Shown here one piece after another: positions 8,513 through 16,911 of a DNA stretch of 16,911 bases. Positions within the stretch are counted from its first letter, which is position 1. The number at the start of each line of letters is the position of its first letter. Under the pieces are notes generated by a model that made no database searches, was not told the origin of the DNA, and saw nothing but the letters and a program-made list of their open reading frames with translations. A program made the translations under genes and the position numbers. Where the stretch lies: IMG/VR virus record IMGVR_UViG_2872164251_000008, one strand, 5' to 3'. Source of the DNA: a virus (Duplodnaviria; Heunggongvirae; Uroviricota; Caudoviricetes).

Positions 8513-9670
8513 TTAATCGTCGTCTTCCGGCAGTTCCAGAATCTTGATCGCGTTCGAATCCACCACGCCACCGCCTAAATATTTTTGCGTGAAAATTTTG
8601 ATGAATCCTGGTTCTGTCAGGTTGTCCGGTCTGGTGCGAACACCTGTTTCGTGATCAACAATGTAGTAACCGCGTTTGAAGTCACCCAGGGCAATAACGT
8701 TATCAGGCATAAACTCCAGATATTCGACCGGAAGGCCCAGCAACGTATCAGGATCACCCGCCTGTAAACGGTCGCGCCAGATATAATCACCGTTCGCGTT
8801 CTTCACCTTCTGAAGTTTTGCCGCCGTCGTGGAGTTAACCACCCAGACCGCGTTTTTGCGGTATTTTTTACGTAATGCAAATTTCAGGTCGATCAGCGGG
8901 TCCGCAGATGTCCACGCCAGAGATTCGGAAGGTTTAATTACCTGCAACGTACCAAAATCACGCTCTTTGTCGTTCTTCTCTGCACGGGGTACGGATAAAA
9001 AACCTTTTGCTTTTTTGTCACCGTCGCCCACAACCAGATCGCTTTCTTCGGTTTCCGTGAAGGTGTCGCCAATCTCACCCGTCAGCCATGAAAGGATGTC
9101 CACATCGGAAAAATCCACGATTTCCTGTGTGGTGCGCGGGTACGCATAGACCGGATACAGCTTAATGCTCACCTCGTTAATCTGCGGGGTGCTGGTCTGT
9201 TCGCGTGCCTTACCCTCTTCACCGTGGTTAACGGTCGCACCGCCAGCGGAAACAAGCTGCTTAAACTCGTTGCTGCTGATTTTCTTCACGGTACAGATGC
9301 GGCGCATAGTGGATTCATCCGCCAGCATTCGCATGATTTCGGTGTTCAGTTCAGGGATAACGGTATAACCACCATCAGCGGGAACGCCTGTACTTAATGC
9401 GCGGGTTTCACCGGTCAGAATGTAGTTGCGTAGTTCTGCGGGGTCAGTGGTCTGGCTGCTTTTACCTGGCTTGCTGCGCTCTTCGTCTGCAATGGCTTCA
9501 AGGCGGGAAATGTCTTTATCGAGGGATTCAGCTTTAGCGCGTAATTCGTCAAATTTTGCGCCCTCAGCATCGTTAAGACTGCGGTTTTCTTTTTCAGCGT
9601 TCTCCAGCATGTCGCGCATCTGATTTTTAATGGCGGTTTTCTGCTGGCGTAATTCGATTATTCTCTGCAT
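8513..9670 (-). CDS. major capsid protein, HK97 fold, with N-terminal coiled-coil (delta/scaffold-like) region
   Basis: ORF track 8513..9670 (385 aa). Charged coiled-coil N-terminus followed by a capsid-like body. AGGA Shine-Dalgarno 7 nt upstream of ATG. Confidence 0.9.
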   Translation of the reverse strand: MQRIIELRQQKTAIKNQMRDMLENAEKENRSLNDAEGAKFDELRAKAESLDKDISRLEAIADEERSKPGKSSQTTDPAELRNYILTGETRALSTGVPADGGYTVIPELNTEIMRMLADESTMRRICTVKKISSNEFKQLVSAGGATVNHGEEGKAREQTSTPQINEVSIKLYPVYAYPRTTQEIVDFSDVDILSWLTGEIGDTFTETEESDLVVGDGDKKAKGFLSVPRAEKNDKERDFGTLQVIKPSESLAWTSADPLIDLKFALRKKYRKNAVWVVNSTTAAKLQKVKNANGDYIWRDRLQAGDPDTLLGLPVEYLEFMPDNVIALGDFKRGYYIVDHETGVRTRPDNLTEPGFIKIFTQKYLGGGVVDSNAIKILELPEDDD

Positions 9671-9825
9671 AAAAAAGTCCTGGGGTTAAGTAAGGAACTC
9701 CAGGACGCGGCAAACACTCAACCGTTTTTCATAAGGAAATCAGTAATCGCACCGATCGTTTTCCCGCCTGGTAATGAATATTGGCGAGCACATTAACAGG
9801 CGGGAAAGTGGCCCCAGCGTCCTGG
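9671..9825 (-). promoter_or_regulatory. capsid operon 5' leader with terminator/antiterminator-like alternative pairing and a 17-bp-arm inverted repeat
   Basis: On the mRNA, GCGUCCUGG (9708-9700) can pair either with an upstream CCAGGACGC (9825-9817, 9 bp) or with the downstream CCAGGAC (9683-9677, 7 bp). The downstream arm contains the capsid Shine-Dalgarno and is followed by U6 directly before the AUG. A separate inverted repeat TTTCCCGCCTGGTAATG / CATTAACAGGCGGGAAA spans 9760-9807. Confidence 0.4.
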
Positions 9826-10506: not shown

Positions 10507-10812
10507 TCAGTGAAGCGATCCGGCATTGTTCTTTTTCATCTCTTCCATCATTTTTTCAGTGAGCATTACGCACTGAAACCCCATGTTTTTGATGTCTACG
10601 GGTTTCATGCCTTTGTCAGTGGATATCACAGGCAGAATATCCTGATACACATCGCGGTCAGGGTAACTAAGCACACAAAGCGCCCATGATGCCACGGGTG
10701 AGGATCCTTCGTCTGTTTCAACCCACCAGCCTGGTGTAGCTGCGCTTATTTGCAGAATCGTGATCCGTCCGTTGTGCTTGTAAAATTTTTCACCAAATTT
10801 TGGTTCGCTCAT
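10507..10812 (-). CDS. hypothetical protein (101 aa)
   Basis: ORF track. ATGA start/stop overlap with the upstream ORF. GGAGAGG Shine-Dalgarno. Confidence 0.5.
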   Translation of the reverse strand: MSEPKFGEKFYKHNGRITILQISAATPGWWVETDEGSSPVASWALCVLSYPDRDVYQDILPVISTDKGMKPVDIKNMGFQCVMLTEKMMEEMKKNNAGSLH

Positions 10813-11087
10813 GATTCCACCTCTCCGGTTTTAACGTTGATTGTTGTTACCTGTTCCGCTTCGGCAATCTCCCGCTCTGTCAGCGTGGCAAAATTTGCCG
10901 CCGTCGTGGTCATGAATGCGCTTATCAGTTCGGGATGTGCTTTCGCGTATCCTTCCCCCGCGTGGCGGTCTATCGTTCTGATTGCCACCTTTAAAGCGTG
11001 CTCTGTCATGTCTAACGCGCGATATTTCGGTTCTGTTCTGTCTCTGCGTTTTTTGAGTGATTTATTAAATTTCCCTGAAGTGTGCAT
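10809..11087 (-). CDS. hypothetical protein (92 aa)
   Basis: ORF track. GAGGGGG Shine-Dalgarno upstream of ATG at 11087. Confidence 0.5.
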   Translation of the reverse strand: MHTSGKFNKSLKKRRDRTEPKYRALDMTEHALKVAIRTIDRHAGEGYAKAHPELISAFMTTTAANFATLTEREIAEAEQVTTINVKTGEVES

Positions 11088-11129
11088 ATTTATTTTTACC
11101 CCCTCGTTTAAAAAGTTTTGAGTTGTGCC

Positions 11130-11360
11130 TCCCCTTGTCTACCTTAGTGGCCCTCATGCCAGTAATGGCGCTGCTTTCAGCGGGGTAGAGTGCTTTTATC
11201 CACTATCTACCCCGTGTCTACCTCCCTGTCTGATTCAGGTAAAATCAGGTAGAGAGGGTAGATAGTGGGTAGACAGTAAAAAAAGGCTACCTACCTAACT
11301 TAATGCACTGAATTAAATGTATTTTTCTTTACTCAGGTAGATAGGGTAGACAGCAATTAC
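11130..11360. repeat. candidate replication origin: cluster of GGTAGA iterons in both orientations with interspersed AT-rich stretches, immediately 3' of the primase-helicase gene
   Basis: GGTAGA at about 11184, 11248, 11257, 11268, 11336, 11345. Inverted TCTACC at about 11138, 11206, 11217, 11287-11296. AT-rich runs at 11274-11285 and 11300-11330. Confidence 0.55.
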
Positions 11361-11366
11361 AAAAAA

Positions 11367-13115
11367 TTATAAAAACGCGTCGCACTCGTCTGTTGTTATT
11401 GCGTTAGTCTGCGTTACTCCCTTAACTTTCCGCGTAATATATTCATGTCCGTAAACTTTCGCGGCTGGCTTCATAGCCTTGCCAAAGTCATTTACGTTTA
11501 GCGGTTTGCTCCTGCCTGCGTACGCCATAAACGCCAGATAGACGCGGTAAAGGCTGTTTCTGGTCGTGTACTTCACTGAATCGCCACCGCCGCCCATCAT
11601 CAGGCCGCGTGCTTCCTCCAGAAAATTCAGGAACTGGCAAAACTCAATAACCGGATCCGTCTGTTGCTTTATTGCCAGAGCTTCATCACCGTCACGCTGT
11701 TCCAGTAGTAAAGCCCGTGCTTTCTCAGAGTCGGTAAAGTTCGCCAGCAATCGGCGGATAATGACAGGGATTTCAGCCGCAATCTTTTCCGGTAGCTCCC
11801 TGTCTTTTTCGGCCTCACTAACGATATTGTCGAAACGGAAAATCACGCGACGACGTGCCACACCTCCGGCCCGTTCGGTGAATATCATCGGGTTATTGTT
11901 GGTCGCCAGCACCACCGCCCTGATTACAGCCGTGAAACGCTTTTCGTATTTCGGGTTAATTTCCACGGGGTCACCGCCCGTGATTTTCTTGATGCCCGTT
12001 CCTTCGCCTGTATATTTCGGCTGGTCAGCCAGGACGATAAGACGACTCCCGACAACCTGCGGACGTCCACCAGCATCATCAAGCGATGTCATTTCAGCGC
12101 TTACCGTGTTCTGTTTCCCTGCCAGAAGGCTGGCTATGTGTGTGAATGTACTTTTACCGCTCCCGCCGTCTCCGGTGGCCTCAATAAACATCTGCCAGTC
12201 GTACCGGTTCGCCATAATCATGTACAGCGCGGCACATATACGCATCATCTTGCGCTGGTCTTTTCCGGCTGCGTGCTCAAGCCATTTATGAAAGTTTAGC
12301 GCGTTATCGCGGATGTTCTCCCCTGGTGCTGGTGGCGTGTACTCAATGCCGTTGTGCGTGGTGATCCAGTTCTCCGGCGTGTGCGGGGAAAATTCCCCCG
12401 TTTTCAGGTCAAGCGCACCATTGGCGAACGGCAGCAAATCGCCGGACGGCTCGCCCATTGGTTCGGCAATAACTTTTAACGCTTCCACGGCGTTATTGAT
12501 TACGCGCTTGCTGAAAGTGGCCCTGTGCTCTGAATAGATCGCCACCATTTCGCGGCTAAGTTCCATTGTGCTGACCGGACACCATACCCCGCCGCGCCAT
12601 ACGTGAACGATTTCACTTTCCTGATGCACACAAACGCCATCAAAGCGCTCGGCAAGCAGCTGCGCGCGCTCACTGTCTGCCATTTGTGCCAGTTGCGTAT
12701 TTTTCTGCTCCGGCATGGTAAGCCCTGCGGCAATATTTTCACGCTCAGCATTCAGATAGCGCCGCCAGTTTTCACACTTCTGGACGTGCATTCCTTCGGG
12801 GTAAAAATTTGCGTCCTGAATATCTGCCGCCGCCAGCTTCTGACCAATCTTTTTGGTCTCCACCAAATCCAGTTCTCCGGCCTGGTACAGCCTTACGCGT
12901 TTTTTTCCATCCGGAACAATTTTCAGTGCATCAAGTTCGGCAAGCTGATTTGGCCCAAGCCACACAGGCGGCACATTATCGCCGGATGCGGGGCCATCCT
13001 GCTCCTGCCATTGTTTCGCGTGCGACCAGGCATCACTACCCGCAAAGATAATTACCTCTGTGTCTTTGTGTTTTATTCCGCGTGGCTGTTTTTTTACGTT
13101 CGGTGCCAGTTTCAT
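11367..13115 (-). CDS. replication protein: primase/helicase-type P-loop NTPase (P4 alpha / D5-like C-terminal region)
   Basis: ORF track 11367..13115 (582 aa). Walker A motif GDGGSGKST. Overall layout typical of satellite/plasmid primase-helicase proteins. ATGA overlap with upstream ORF. Confidence 0.8.
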   Translation of the reverse strand: MKLAPNVKKQPRGIKHKDTEVIIFAGSDAWSHAKQWQEQDGPASGDNVPPVWLGPNQLAELDALKIVPDGKKRVRLYQAGELDLVETKKIGQKLAAADIQDANFYPEGMHVQKCENWRRYLNAERENIAAGLTMPEQKNTQLAQMADSERAQLLAERFDGVCVHQESEIVHVWRGGVWCPVSTMELSREMVAIYSEHRATFSKRVINNAVEALKVIAEPMGEPSGDLLPFANGALDLKTGEFSPHTPENWITTHNGIEYTPPAPGENIRDNALNFHKWLEHAAGKDQRKMMRICAALYMIMANRYDWQMFIEATGDGGSGKSTFTHIASLLAGKQNTVSAEMTSLDDAGGRPQVVGSRLIVLADQPKYTGEGTGIKKITGGDPVEINPKYEKRFTAVIRAVVLATNNNPMIFTERAGGVARRRVIFRFDNIVSEAEKDRELPEKIAAEIPVIIRRLLANFTDSEKARALLLEQRDGDEALAIKQQTDPVIEFCQFLNFLEEARGLMMGGGGDSVKYTTRNSLYRVYLAFMAYAGRSKPLNVNDFGKAMKPAAKVYGHEYITRKVKGVTQTNAITTDECDAFL

Positions 13116-13411
13116 TTTTTACCCCTGAATACGTTAAGCATCTTTTTTATTTCCTGAATATTGGCGCGTGCTTTCTCCCTGCTGGTTGGTTTACTGCGGG
13201 GCGCTGCCTGTACCAGCGTGAAATCACGCCGGAATTGATAAACAGGCATCACGCAATCATATTCGTAACCTTCACGGCGGTAGGTGATGCGCCGTTCTGC
13301 CACGCCTTTAATCGTTACCATGCCGCCGTACTGGTCGCGGTAAATATCACCGCGCGTAAATTTAGGGTGAGTGTTGCCACTGGCAGTTAAGCCAGAATAT
13401 TTAAGTTTCAT
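13112..13411 (-). CDS. hypothetical protein (99 aa), translationally coupled to the replication gene
   Basis: ORF track. GGAGA Shine-Dalgarno. Stop overlaps the replication gene start. Confidence 0.55.
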   Translation of the reverse strand: MKLKYSGLTASGNTHPKFTRGDIYRDQYGGMVTIKGVAERRITYRREGYEYDCVMPVYQFRRDFTLVQAAPRSKPTSREKARANIQEIKKMLNVFRGKK

Positions 13412-13872: not shown

Positions 13873-14086
13873 AACCCCCCCCATTTTCACAATCGGCAAC
13901 AAGAATATTTTTAGCGTCATTCAGTGACCGCGTTGCGATGTATCGGATACATTCCAGGGCGAACTGTGTCCGGTCTTTCTGTTCTTCTCCCTGCGCAAGC
14001 TCTGCCGTGCATTCAATATCAATAAGCGCGTGCATCAGCGTAGTGAGTGCGGCGGCTGCTGCGTTCGGTGTGGTTTTATTGTGCAT
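13865..14086 (-). CDS. hypothetical protein (73 aa from MHNKTTPNAAAA…), first gene of the replication-side operon
   Basis: ORF track 13865..14128. Internal ATG at 14084-14086 has an AGGGGGAAA Shine-Dalgarno. Confidence 0.45.
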   Translation of the reverse strand: MHNKTTPNAAAAALTTLMHALIDIECTAELAQGEEQKDRTQFALECIRYIATRSLNDAKNILVADCENGGGYA

Positions 14087-14357
14087 AGGTTTCCCCCTGA
14101 CGAATACGGGCGGCGAATACAGCAACACAACCGGACGGGCAACGGCTACGCGCTTCGCGTTCCGTCCAAGCGGTTACGTGGATGATTTGGGATTCTCCGG
14201 TACTCAGTGCCAGAAAACGCCACACAAAGGCCGTTTGTGTGTGTACAAGGTGTGGTATATGATTTACGGCAACCATAACGGCTCCTAGTTTACGTTGTTG
14301 GTTAGAAGCCCCGTTACTGCTCCTACAGTGCGGGGCTTTGCTTTTTGTGTTGATTGT

Positions 14358-14403
14358 GTGTAATGTGTCATTACACATAAATACATTACATGAGGTGTAA
14401 TTA
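14358..14403. promoter_or_regulatory. operator-like array of TGTAAT/ATTACA half-sites (GTGTAATG-TGT-CATTACAC, then CATTACA…TGTAATT) overlapping the RHH gene promoter/RBS region
   Basis: Direct reading. Perfect 8-bp inverted repeat at 14358-14376 plus two further half-sites to 14403. Confidence 0.4.
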
Positions 14404-14405
14404 AC

Positions 14406-14585
14406 GTGTCAACACACAAAAACGAAAGGCGTGGTAATCCTCCGTTCCAGTTCCGTTTAGATCCTGACTTACGGGAAAAGATGGAAAAGGCACAACAACA
14501 GGACGGCGATGATTCTCTTGCTGCCTGGATAAAGCGAATAATCCGCAAAGAATTACAGCAACGCGGCATAGAACCCAAAGGATAA
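14406..14585 (+). CDS. Arc/MetJ-type ribbon-helix-helix DNA-binding protein (59 aa, GTG start), candidate island repressor
   Basis: Found by hand, not in the ORF track. GAGGTG Shine-Dalgarno at 14391-14396. Translation …PPFQFRLDPDLREKMEKAQQQDGDDSLAAWIKRIIRKELQQRG has the Arc-like beta-strand/helix/helix layout. Followed by a + strand terminator. Confidence 0.6.
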   Translation: MSTHKNERRGNPPFQFRLDPDLREKMEKAQQQDGDDSLAAWIKRIIRKELQQRGIEPKG

Positions 14586-14642
14586 AAACTATCAGCGCCG
14601 TGGTGTGAGGTACTACGGCGCATTGCTTTACAGGCGCACACA

Positions 14643-14819
14643 ATGACCAACGAAGAATCAACCGAAAAAACATCACCTGCACGAAAAAGACGACGCAGAA
14701 AGAAAGAGCATGAATCAGAACGATTCGCGCCGTGTTCTTTTGCCCTTGAGAAGTACCTTAAAGAATACTCATCAAAGGAGAGAACTTCGCAGTTATGGCA
14801 ACGCACTGAACCAGACTGA
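14643..14819 (+). CDS. possible small basic protein (58 aa) downstream of the RHH gene
   Basis: Open frame MTNEESTEKTSPARKRRRRKKEH… in the same transcription unit. No clear Shine-Dalgarno. Coding status uncertain. Confidence 0.2.
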   Translation: MTNEESTEKTSPARKRRRRKKEHESERFAPCSFALEKYLKEYSSKERTSQLWQRTEPD

Positions 14820-14914
14820 TTGCATTGCCCACCAGCCTGATAGCGGCTATCATCCCCGTGCTTATGTTTGGGATCACACACACAAACGGCGCAGCGGGTT
14901 ATCTGTTCAGAAAG

Positions 14915-14942
14915 GCGGCTCCATTTCGGGGCCGCTTTTTTT
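14915..14942 (+). terminator. rho-independent terminator for the + strand RHH unit (8-bp stem GCGGCUCC/GGGGCCGC with one G-U pair, 5-nt loop, T7 tail)
   Basis: Direct reading. Confidence 0.6.
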
Positions 14943-15088
14943 ATGCCTGAAAAACCCCAATTTTGTGGTTTTCCAGTTTCACCAGGGCGAACGAATCCCC
15001 GCCCACGTTCTGGCGTATATTCAATCTTCATGGTTATAGCTCTGTGTTCAGATGATTGATGTGTGGCGGCTGCGTGCCGCCAGCGTGA

Positions 15089-15277
15089 TTAATGAACTGC
15101 CTTGCAGCTATCCTTCCAGGCCAGAACCTCGGATAAAGACCAGCCAACGGAACGACCGCCAAGTTTACGACGTGATGGGAATTGTCCGGCCTTTTCCAGG
15201 CGGTAGCGGCATGAGCGGCTAAGGCCTGTTAGCTTTTCGCATTCTTTTTCACGTATAAACCGATCAGTGCTTAACAC
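15089..15277 (-). CDS. alpA: AlpA/Vis-family phage transcriptional regulator (excisionase-like HTH), GTG start
   Basis: ORF track 15089..15277. Pattern …IREKECEKLTGLSRSCRYRLEKAGQFPSRRKLGGRSVGWSLSEVLAW… is characteristic of AlpA/Vis proteins. AGGGGG Shine-Dalgarno. Confidence 0.85.
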   Translation of the reverse strand: MLSTDRFIREKECEKLTGLSRSCRYRLEKAGQFPSRRKLGGRSVGWSLSEVLAWKDSCKAVH

Positions 15278-15681: not shown

Positions 15682-16911
15682 TTATTTTCTTCTGGCTACT
15701 GGTAGCGTGGTTACGTTTTCATGTGTTCCCGCCAGTATCCCTAACCGCTCCGTCCACATATCCAGCGCATTGCGTTTAGCATCCAGATAACGGGAATGAT
15801 TATAAACTCGCTGCATTCCTGGCATCTGGTGGCCTGTAAGCTGCTCCACGACGTGAGGATCCACGCCTAAATCGTTCAGCATCGTTGTAAAGGTGCGCCG
15901 GATGTCATGTAGTGACCAGTGAGGGTGATTTAGCCTCCTGTGCGCTAATCTGCCGTACTGCGACACGCTTGTTTCCTGTTTCACTTCCCCCAGCAATAAG
16001 CCCGTGTGCCTGTTCTGCTCCACCAGCTGCGTGACGAACGGCAGTATTGCTTCCGGTATGGGCCGGAATATTGCCACCTTCGTTTTGCTGTGTTCTTTCG
16101 GCACGGTCCAGAGCATTTCGGTAAAATCCCACTCGCTGATCTCCGATAACCTCAGTTCTACCGTCCGGCATCCGAACACAATCAGGAGGCGGATTAACGC
16201 GATGTAGTAGGGGGAGAATATTTTTTTGTCCAGTGCCTGCAATAATTCGCCCAGTTCTTTGGTGCTTAAGACACGCTCGCTTATATCCGGTTTTTTCCCA
16301 ACGTCCGCCACACTCATATCATCAAGAACGTTGCTGATTGCATAGCGCCGCCTCCGGCAGAACTTAAGCGCCTGTTTGCACGTCTGTAGCAAGAATCCGG
16401 CAGTAACAGGCGTTCGCTTTGCCACCTGGTCAAAACAGGCCAGCCAGTGCCGTAGCTCGCATTTATCCAGCGGCATAGCACCAATGTGCTGTATTACGTG
16501 ATTATTAAGGCGCTTTTTCAGGGCGGCATAATCCACGCGGTTTTCCTTTGCGTACGACTCAAGCCAGTAGGTGAGCGCATCGCCAACCGTTACCGGCTTT
16601 AACGCTTCCTGTACGGTGTAATTAAGCTCATGACGTGGATTTTTCCCCTCTGCCAGCCATGCGCGACACTGGGCGGCTTTTTCCCTGGCTGATTTCAGGC
16701 TCAGATCAGGATAATTTCCCAGCTTAATGCGTTCCGGTGGTGCCCCCCTTCCCGTTCCGGCCCTGTAAGTGAAATACCAGGTTAAAAGGCCACTGGTTGA
16801 ATGCCTGACGCTCAGGTTTCCACCGTCATTAAGAAAGGCTGTTTTTTGGGCGGGTGTGCCGTTGATTTTCCTCAGCTGTGTATCGCTCAGTTTGTTAAGT
16901 GCTCTGCTCAT
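15682..16911 (-). CDS. int: tyrosine site-specific integrase, P4-type (N-terminal arm-binding domain plus catalytic domain); ATG is the last three bases of the window
   Basis: ORF track 15682..16911 (409 aa). Catalytic pattern …HDIRRTF… and …GHQMPGMQRVYNHSRY. N-terminal region resembles P4-family integrases. Confidence 0.92.
   Translation of the reverse strand: MSRALNKLSDTQLRKINGTPAQKTAFLNDGGNLSVRHSTSGLLTWYFTYRAGTGRGAPPERIKLGNYPDLSLKSAREKAAQCRAWLAEGKNPRHELNYTVQEALKPVTVGDALTYWLESYAKENRVDYAALKKRLNNHVIQHIGAMPLDKCELRHWLACFDQVAKRTPVTAGFLLQTCKQALKFCRRRRYAISNVLDDMSVADVGKKPDISERVLSTKELGELLQALDKKIFSPYYIALIRLLIVFGCRTVELRLSEISEWDFTEMLWTVPKEHSKTKVAIFRPIPEAILPFVTQLVEQNRHTGLLLGEVKQETSVSQYGRLAHRRLNHPHWSLHDIRRTFTTMLNDLGVDPHVVEQLTGHQMPGMQRVYNHSRYLDAKRNALDMWTERLGILAGTHENVTTLPVARRK

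Follow-up and report, generated by a model that had tools for sequence, protein, structure and literature searches.

An iteron array directly 3' of rep as the very probable replication origin of a capsid-forming satellite island at the roxA/phoQ site

From which site does a phage satellite integrated between roxA and phoQ start its replication? This question is raised by a cluster of GGTAGA hexamers in the IMG/VR virus record IMGVR_UViG_2872164251_000008, a stretch of 16,911 nucleotides (Caudoviricetes) that is referred to here, at its full length, as the window. The window is a satellite of the capsid-forming phage-inducible chromosomal island (cf-PICI) type at the roxA/phoQ site, and the cluster lies beside its replication gene rep. 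A sequence-only reading of positions 11130-11360 had proposed the cluster as a candidate island origin. According to our analysis, the non-coding interval 11088-11366 is very probably the vegetative replication origin of this cf-PICI. We base this directly on the repeat cluster and where it lies, on its selective conservation and homology to the island EcCICFT073, and on the domains of Rep; the dependence of plasmid maintenance on Rep and ori is taken from the literature, for a 95%-identical homologue only.

An exact search of both strands revealed 11 GGTAGA sites in the whole window, nine of which are located between 11138 and 11350, six on the plus and three on the minus strand. From base composition, about 0.11 GGTAGA/TCTACC sites are expected per 230 bp as compared to nine observed in 213 bp; furthermore, when the window was simulated 300 times by a first-order Markov model, no hexamer exceeded six copies per 230-bp stretch. 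The remaining two sites (488 and 16157) are both single and lie in phoQ and int, and no second GGTAGA cluster was found in the 16.9-kb window. Two copies with one mismatch, GGTAGG at 11290-11295 and GGTAGC at 11286-11291, were identified on the minus strand. Aligned in one orientation, the iterons share the extended consensus R-GGTAGA-N-A-G, and tandem copies are spaced 9 or 11 bp from start to start, which is about one helical turn. The iteron nearest to rep ends at 11350, leaving a gap of 16 nt to the rep stop codon at 11367-11369 (tta on the plus strand). The list of open reading frames (ORFs) contains none of at least 50 aa within 11122-11366.

Several details of the sequence-only reading were thereby borne out: the hexamers occur in both orientations, and they start within 30 bp of the stop of the replication gene, which is encoded on the minus strand. 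The cluster is real, but the stated number of at least ten hexamers is reached only when one-mismatch copies are counted. The description of AT-rich spacers applies to the 62-bp stretch 11274-11335 only, the other spacers being of mixed composition.

EcCICFT073 of E. coli CFT073, the prototype Gram-negative PICI, is also integrated at roxA/phoQ. The interval 11088-11366 is 95% identical to the 288-bp interval that follows pri-rep in CFT073 (L013:12997-13284). Rep of the window shows 90% identity to EcCICFT073 Pri-Rep, with 99% identity over the C-terminal 100 aa and almost all differences in the first 140 residues. The region directly 3' of the replication initiator gene was named as the origin by Fillol-Salom et al. 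(2018, ISME J, PMC6092414), who assayed a temperature-sensitive plasmid for maintenance in its pri-ori, pri-Δori and Δpri-ori versions. At 44 °C, pri-ori was maintained and Δpri-ori was not; colonies required rep (PMC6092414). Mapping of the primers used in that study placed the end of the Δori insert 4 nt beyond the stop of pri-rep and showed that the ori+ insert reaches about 23 nt into the next gene; hence, the tested 'ori' was the whole interval, equivalent to 11064-11362 of the window. The Δpri knock-out primer deliberately retains the rep-proximal GGTAGA pair. Identity at this level to a segment assayed as ori supports the proposal of a candidate island origin, and the accompanying statement that satellite islands place an iteron ori directly 3' of rep is made in the literature for both Gram-positive and Gram-negative PICIs (PMC6092414, PMC9371898). 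'An ori downstream of pri' is treated as standard for these islands in later papers.

In both islands, GGTAGA iterons are located at identical distances from the stop of rep. EcCICFT073 was described as having two iteron sets around an AT-rich region, and the window has the 11336/11345 pair, the 62-bp AT stretch, the triple at 11248-11273 and further copies. They differ in that the window copy has nine exact iterons as compared to 11, and in that its island has a full capsid-to-terminase module where EcCICFT073 has capsid/decoration genes instead. Position 3' of rep, iteron/AT layout, homology and PICI gene context all agree with an origin of the EcCICFT073 type.

Of 5426 complete E. coli genomes, 558 contain the interval, in each case on the chromosome and beside a gene with the annotation 'DNA primase family protein'. 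Conservation was determined for 10 loci with intervals 61-98% identical to the window, using the alignment columns within 11130-11360. Invariant columns amounted to 87% in the hexamers as compared to 24% elsewhere, and hexamer positions and orientations were kept. Apparently, the iteron cores are under purifying selection. Both cores of the rep-proximal pair are invariant, and an equivalent pair is located beside the rep stop in all other iteron types examined.

The canonical array comprises 11 copies with the following offsets from the rep stop in gene direction, arrowheads marking orientation: 17>, 26>, 72<, 94>, 105>, 114>, 145<, 156<, 178>, 224< and 233<. Two of these are lost from the window, as scored relative to the locus of Shigella flexneri SFBU1023 (L019) and to CFT073. 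Copy 72<, the reverse iteron within the AT-rich spacer, is an exact GGTAGA in relatives and was changed to GGTAGG by an A-to-G change at 11290; copy 233< is missing through deletion of the 9-bp tandem unit TTATCTACC at 11143/11144. Furthermore, all 20 of the 20 best E. coli matches to a 501-bp query were 509-510 bp long, indicating an insertion of about 9 bp relative to the window. Rep of the window is 100% identical to Rep of S. flexneri SFBU1023, and the two loci are 99.5% identical over 6.7 kb. A genome-wide scan for Rep relatives returned only three loci, in Shigella flexneri (100%), Serratia (53%) and Morganella (52%), which served the comparison of layouts but are too few for a taxonomic survey.

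Additionally, the same GGTAGA-type rep-ori module with 11 iterons was observed in E. coli Nissle 1917 (L001 9089-9375), where it belongs to a PICI at the tRNA-Pro/yejM site. This PICI has a different morphogenesis module, showing modular exchange of the replication cassette.

Distant Rep alleles are accompanied by the same layout with other iterons, namely TGTTCACC in E. coli RM10042, FDAARGOS_1267 and 19KM1776, GTAGGGAT in E. coli 58-3, TGTTCAC in Serratia aquatilis and TGTTCAT in Morganella morganii. The TGTTCACC octamer is the annotated type-1 iteron of phage P4, and the C-terminal domains of Reps paired with it are about 50% identical to P4 alpha as compared to about 32% for GGTAGA-type Reps. 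Three E. coli origins of this type (L014 2208-2493, L015 2207-2493 and L017 1791-2180) combine the P4-type iteron with the PICI layout; judged from the shared octamer and the similarity of the C-terminal domains, replication cross-talk between TGTTCACC PICIs and P4-like satellites is a possibility. The 92-aa protein encoded downstream of the interval has an 85%-identical homologue beside one TGTTCACC-type origin, and an unrelated protein is encoded beside another. E. coli 19KM1776 has an opposed HEPN gene in place of the downstream genes, and the iterons still adjoin rep. These comparisons argue that the 92-aa protein is not the iteron reader and that the iteron type is independent of the downstream gene.

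Examination of Rep by Pfam, NCBIfam and PDB comparison revealed an initiator-helicase. Residues 486-577 match the C-terminal part of P4 alpha, a solved origin-binding winged helix (PDB 1ka8, E=7e-7), and residues 186-430 match PriRep of the Staphylococcus aureus pathogenicity island (SaPI) SaPI5 (PDB 7ola). Rep shows 39% identity to P4 alpha over alpha residues 326-762, which comprise the helicase and origin-binding parts. Matches in Pfam and NCBIfam were confined to D5_N, DUF5906, Pox_D5 C-terminal and TIGR01613 'primase_Cterm', of which the last reached 107.5 bits, just under its cutoff of 108.7 bits. A P4-type primase domain was not detected in Rep: the alignment begins at alpha residue 326, and the N-terminal primase domain of alpha (residues 1-325) is without counterpart. 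The first 150 residues of Rep gave no Pfam or NCBIfam family match, and a low-confidence structure model of this part yielded generic alpha/beta fold matches only. The 'primase' label of the Rep family is weak and derives from its helicase part. Since no primase domain is detectable in Rep, primers may be provided by host DnaG or by the uncharacterised N-terminal domain of Rep. The earlier placement of the cluster immediately downstream of a primase-helicase gene is correct for position and helicase, but its primase part is not backed by a detectable domain.

SaPI origins are located immediately 3' of rep and contain 6-12 iterons of 5-6 nt split by a central AT-rich region; SaPI Reps bind the iterons by a C-terminal winged helix without ATP, the AT-rich centre is melted, and the proteins load themselves as hexamers (PMC9371898). 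The initiator of the window is likewise a helicase of superfamily 3 (SF3) with a C-terminal winged helix, judged from its D5_N and DUF5906 domains and from the 7ola and 1ka8 matches. The two systems differ in that there is no DNA homology and that the window has an extra conserved non-iteron block. The spacer 11274-11335 is the presumed melting site; only 0.4% of the 60-mers of the window are less stable.

Induction of the island by a helper phage through AlpA would result in the production of Rep, whose C-terminal winged helix would recognise R-GGTAGA-N-A-G iterons on both sides of the 62-bp AT-rich stretch. Bound Rep would assemble as SF3-type hexameric helicases, melt the AT-rich stretch and load itself as described for SaPI Reps, and replication would yield concatemers for packaging. 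Homology to the SaPI system makes this mechanism the best reading for the window; the contact between winged helix and iterons, the melting at 11274-11335, the double-hexamer model and the primer source are inferred.

In iteron plasmids (pSC101, R6K, P1, F), repeated initiator-binding sites adjoin an AT-rich unwinding element, as in the window. Plasmid iterons are direct repeats of about 17-22 bp, and they are bound by WH1-WH2 Rep proteins (RepA/pi-type) which recruit DnaA and DnaB. In contrast, the window has cores of 6-9 bp that point either way, its initiator is itself an SF3 helicase, and its single DnaA-like box lacks conservation. This DnaA-box-like site, TTATCCACT at 11194-11202, agrees with the consensus at eight of nine positions and is kept in close relatives only. 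It was rejected as a defining DnaA box for want of conservation in divergent relatives, and it is probably not a functional requirement.

Several observations weigh against the interval being the vegetative origin. The window copy carries only nine of the 11 canonical iterons, and its replication efficiency could be reduced. In the plasmid assay, pri-Δori 'significantly reduced' colony numbers but did not abolish colony formation (PMC6092414). The iteron sets that flank the AT-rich stretch in the window share their direction, whereas SaPI origins have opposed iterons on each side (PMC9371898); at least two iterons are present on each side in the window, and the opposed copies are the degenerate one in the spacer and the 11206/11217 pair further out. 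Iteron type is tracked equally well by the helicase core of Rep and by its C-terminal domain; hence, the co-variation reflects cognate pairing of Rep and origin and does not pin recognition on the winged-helix domain. Published data on Rep-iteron binding or on melting were not found for a Gram-negative PICI.

P4 offers a different explanation for such a cluster. There, the iterons that cluster directly 3' of alpha, the homologous gene, represent crr, a replication enhancer (4291-4590 in L018), and the annotated ori (9086-9809) is about 4.5 kb away. By analogy, the GGTAGA cluster might be an auxiliary enhancer with the true origin elsewhere in the island, which we consider improbable. The lack of a second GGTAGA cluster in the window argues against it, and a fragment comprising only pri-rep and the interval of EcCICFT073 sufficed for plasmid maintenance (PMC6092414). 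Moreover, two iteron sets around an AT stretch represent the layout of an origin, unlike the duplicated 120-bp unit of P4 crr; P4 requires separate ori and crr as compared to one cluster in the window, and its iteron is TGTTCACC instead of GGTAGA. Between P4 crr and TGTTCACC-type PICI origins, DNA matches were of iteron size only, with no extended homology.

Iterons of many replicons double as regulatory sites, and both the 92-aa gene and the packaging genes are located downstream of the cluster. The repeats could therefore be mainly an operator array for the downstream morphogenesis genes, to which either Rep or the small downstream protein would bind, without a role in initiation; this is still less probable than an enhancer. 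A scan of 10700-11700 revealed neither a sigma-70-like promoter nor an intrinsic terminator on either strand, making read-through from rep more likely. In a plasmid without any downstream genes, replication was impaired when the homologous interval was deleted (PMC6092414). Furthermore, the iteron type goes with Rep rather than with the downstream protein, and 19KM1776 has retained its iterons with the downstream genes replaced. Satellites also carry cos or pac sites, and in some phages repeats are bound by terminase small subunits. A packaging (cos/pac) or recombination site, or a chance or decaying repeat, is nevertheless the least credible of the explanations, with hardly any probability left to it. 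The HNH-TerS-TerL genes are about 5 kb from the iteron interval, and for EcCICFT073 the cos function was assigned to two sites, cos1 and cos2, that were cloned and deleted separately. Chance cannot account for the cluster, given the statistics and its conservation across genera. A vegetative origin thus remains by far the best explanation for 11088-11366.

Along rep transcription, the elements of the PICI origin would follow each other in the order of rep-stop iteron pair, AT-rich stretch with one reverse iteron, direct triple, inverted pair or triple, single iteron and inverted end pair. The conserved non-iteron block 11155-11181 has a recognisable counterpart, ctcaggccacgaatggcaaggctttcag, in E. 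coli 58-3 (L016, ~2897-2925), although the origin there is of the GTAGGGAT type and its iterons differ. A single-strand fold of 11150-11190 was no better than shuffles (z about -1). Tentatively, and with more doubt than confidence, the origin may be regarded as a fixed scaffold in which iteron specificity was swapped several times together with Rep (GGTAGA, TGTTCACC, GTAGGGAT, TGTTCAT), the block possibly being a second cis element that is independent of Rep specificity. It could be a site for a host factor, or a priming site offsetting the missing primase domain of Rep.

The inverted pair and the direct triple together make up an imperfect palindrome (inverted repeat I1, 16 nt, 94% complementary) with its centre near 11234. 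Folding of the palindrome at 11190-11280 as single-stranded DNA gave -17.9 kcal/mol (z = -4.9); outside the iteron cores, its extended arms lack conservation. An RNA element was also considered and rejected: an Rfam scan of 10600-11800 (E ≤1) gave sub-threshold microRNA-hairpin matches only, of about 24 bits or less as compared to gathering scores of 59-150, and these are explained by the inverted iterons. The coordinates of all features are given in the table.

Table. Features of the origin interval, of Rep and of neighbouring genes in the window; positions are those of the window unless Rep residues are given
Feature	Position	Strand	Basis or remark
Origin region (non-coding interval)	11088..11366 (279 bp)		rep stop to start (ATG) of next gene
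Exact GGTAGA sites, start positions	11138(-), 11184(+), 11206(-), 11217(-), 11248(+), 11257(+), 11268(+), 11336(+), 11345(+)		exact search
rep-proximal iteron pair, GGTAGA 11336 + 11345, 9 bp apart	11336..11350	+	exact search
AT-rich spacer, 62 bp, 71% AT	11274..11335		duplex-stability profile
Direct iteron triple, GGTAGA 11248, 11257, 11268, spacing 9 and 11 bp	11248..11273	+	exact search
Inverted iteron pair, GGTAGA 11206 + 11217, 11 bp apart	11206..11222	-	exact search
Single iteron	11184..11189	+	exact search; invariant in 10 loci
Conserved non-iteron block CTCATGCCAGTAATGGCGCTGCTTTCAG	11155..11181		CAGTAATG and TTTCA invariant in 10 loci
Distal iteron, left from tandem pair	11138..11143	-	partner unit of relatives deleted here
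Conserved leader and ribosome-binding site GAGGGGG of downstream gene	11088..11120	-	invariant run GTTTAAAAAGTTTT
Rep ('Pri-Rep') initiator-helicase, 582 aa	11367..13115	-	Pfam, NCBIfam, PDB matches
N-terminal domain of Rep	Rep residues 1-140		without family match
D5_N	Rep residues 151-280		Pfam
DUF5906 (SF3 helicase P-loop)	Rep residues 314-415		Pfam
Pox_D5 C-terminal / winged-helix origin-binding domain	Rep residues 485-577		Pfam
Downstream 92-aa protein, phrog_1231	10809..11087	-	
DUF4222 protein	13112..13411	-	
Icd-like protein	14076..14378	-	
AlpA regulator	15089..15277	-	Pfam Phage_AlpA, E=5e-18
Tyrosine integrase	15682..16911	-	Pfam

All island genes are encoded on the minus strand in the PICI order int, alpA, Icd-like, DUF4222, Rep, repeats and small proteins, followed by the capsid-to-terminase module. 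This morphogenesis module encodes an HK97-type capsid, prohead protease, portal, head-completion and connector proteins, HNH, TerS and TerL; tail or lysis genes were not found in the island. Such a gene organisation corresponds to that of cf-PICIs as described (bioRxiv 10.1101/2022.09.08.507074). A description of the origin is not contained in the cf-PICI papers.

In most relatives examined, the small gene downstream of the origin is followed by a gene for a single-stranded DNA-binding protein; the island of the window lacks it and encodes a 101-aa protein (phrog_27268) at that position (10507-10812, minus strand). Beyond the island, an IS1 copy is followed by phoQ. The IS1 transposase ORF 2642-3145 (region ~2128-3145) is located between phoQ and the 3' end of the island terL; this insertion may have disrupted the right end or the attachment site of the island, and it fits a Shigella-like host. 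A 248-aa ORF at 14285-15031 (minus strand), between alpA and the Icd-like gene, gave no match in Pfam, NCBIfam, PHROGs or PADLOC; either an accessory gene or a spurious reading frame may be present there. PADLOC gave no matches for the unannotated 248-, 101-, 100- and 92-aa proteins.

The rep-ori organisation of Gram-negative PICIs has been known since 2018, and a near-identical copy of this origin was functionally assayed (PMC6092414). Beyond the finding as such, our analysis adds the two lost iterons, the shared block 11155-11181 and the lack of a detectable primase domain in the Rep family. Of practical value is the annotation of a cf-PICI origin at base resolution, with its iterons, its AT-rich stretch and the lost iterons. 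The comparison also shows that one replication module is common to cf-PICIs and classical PICIs.
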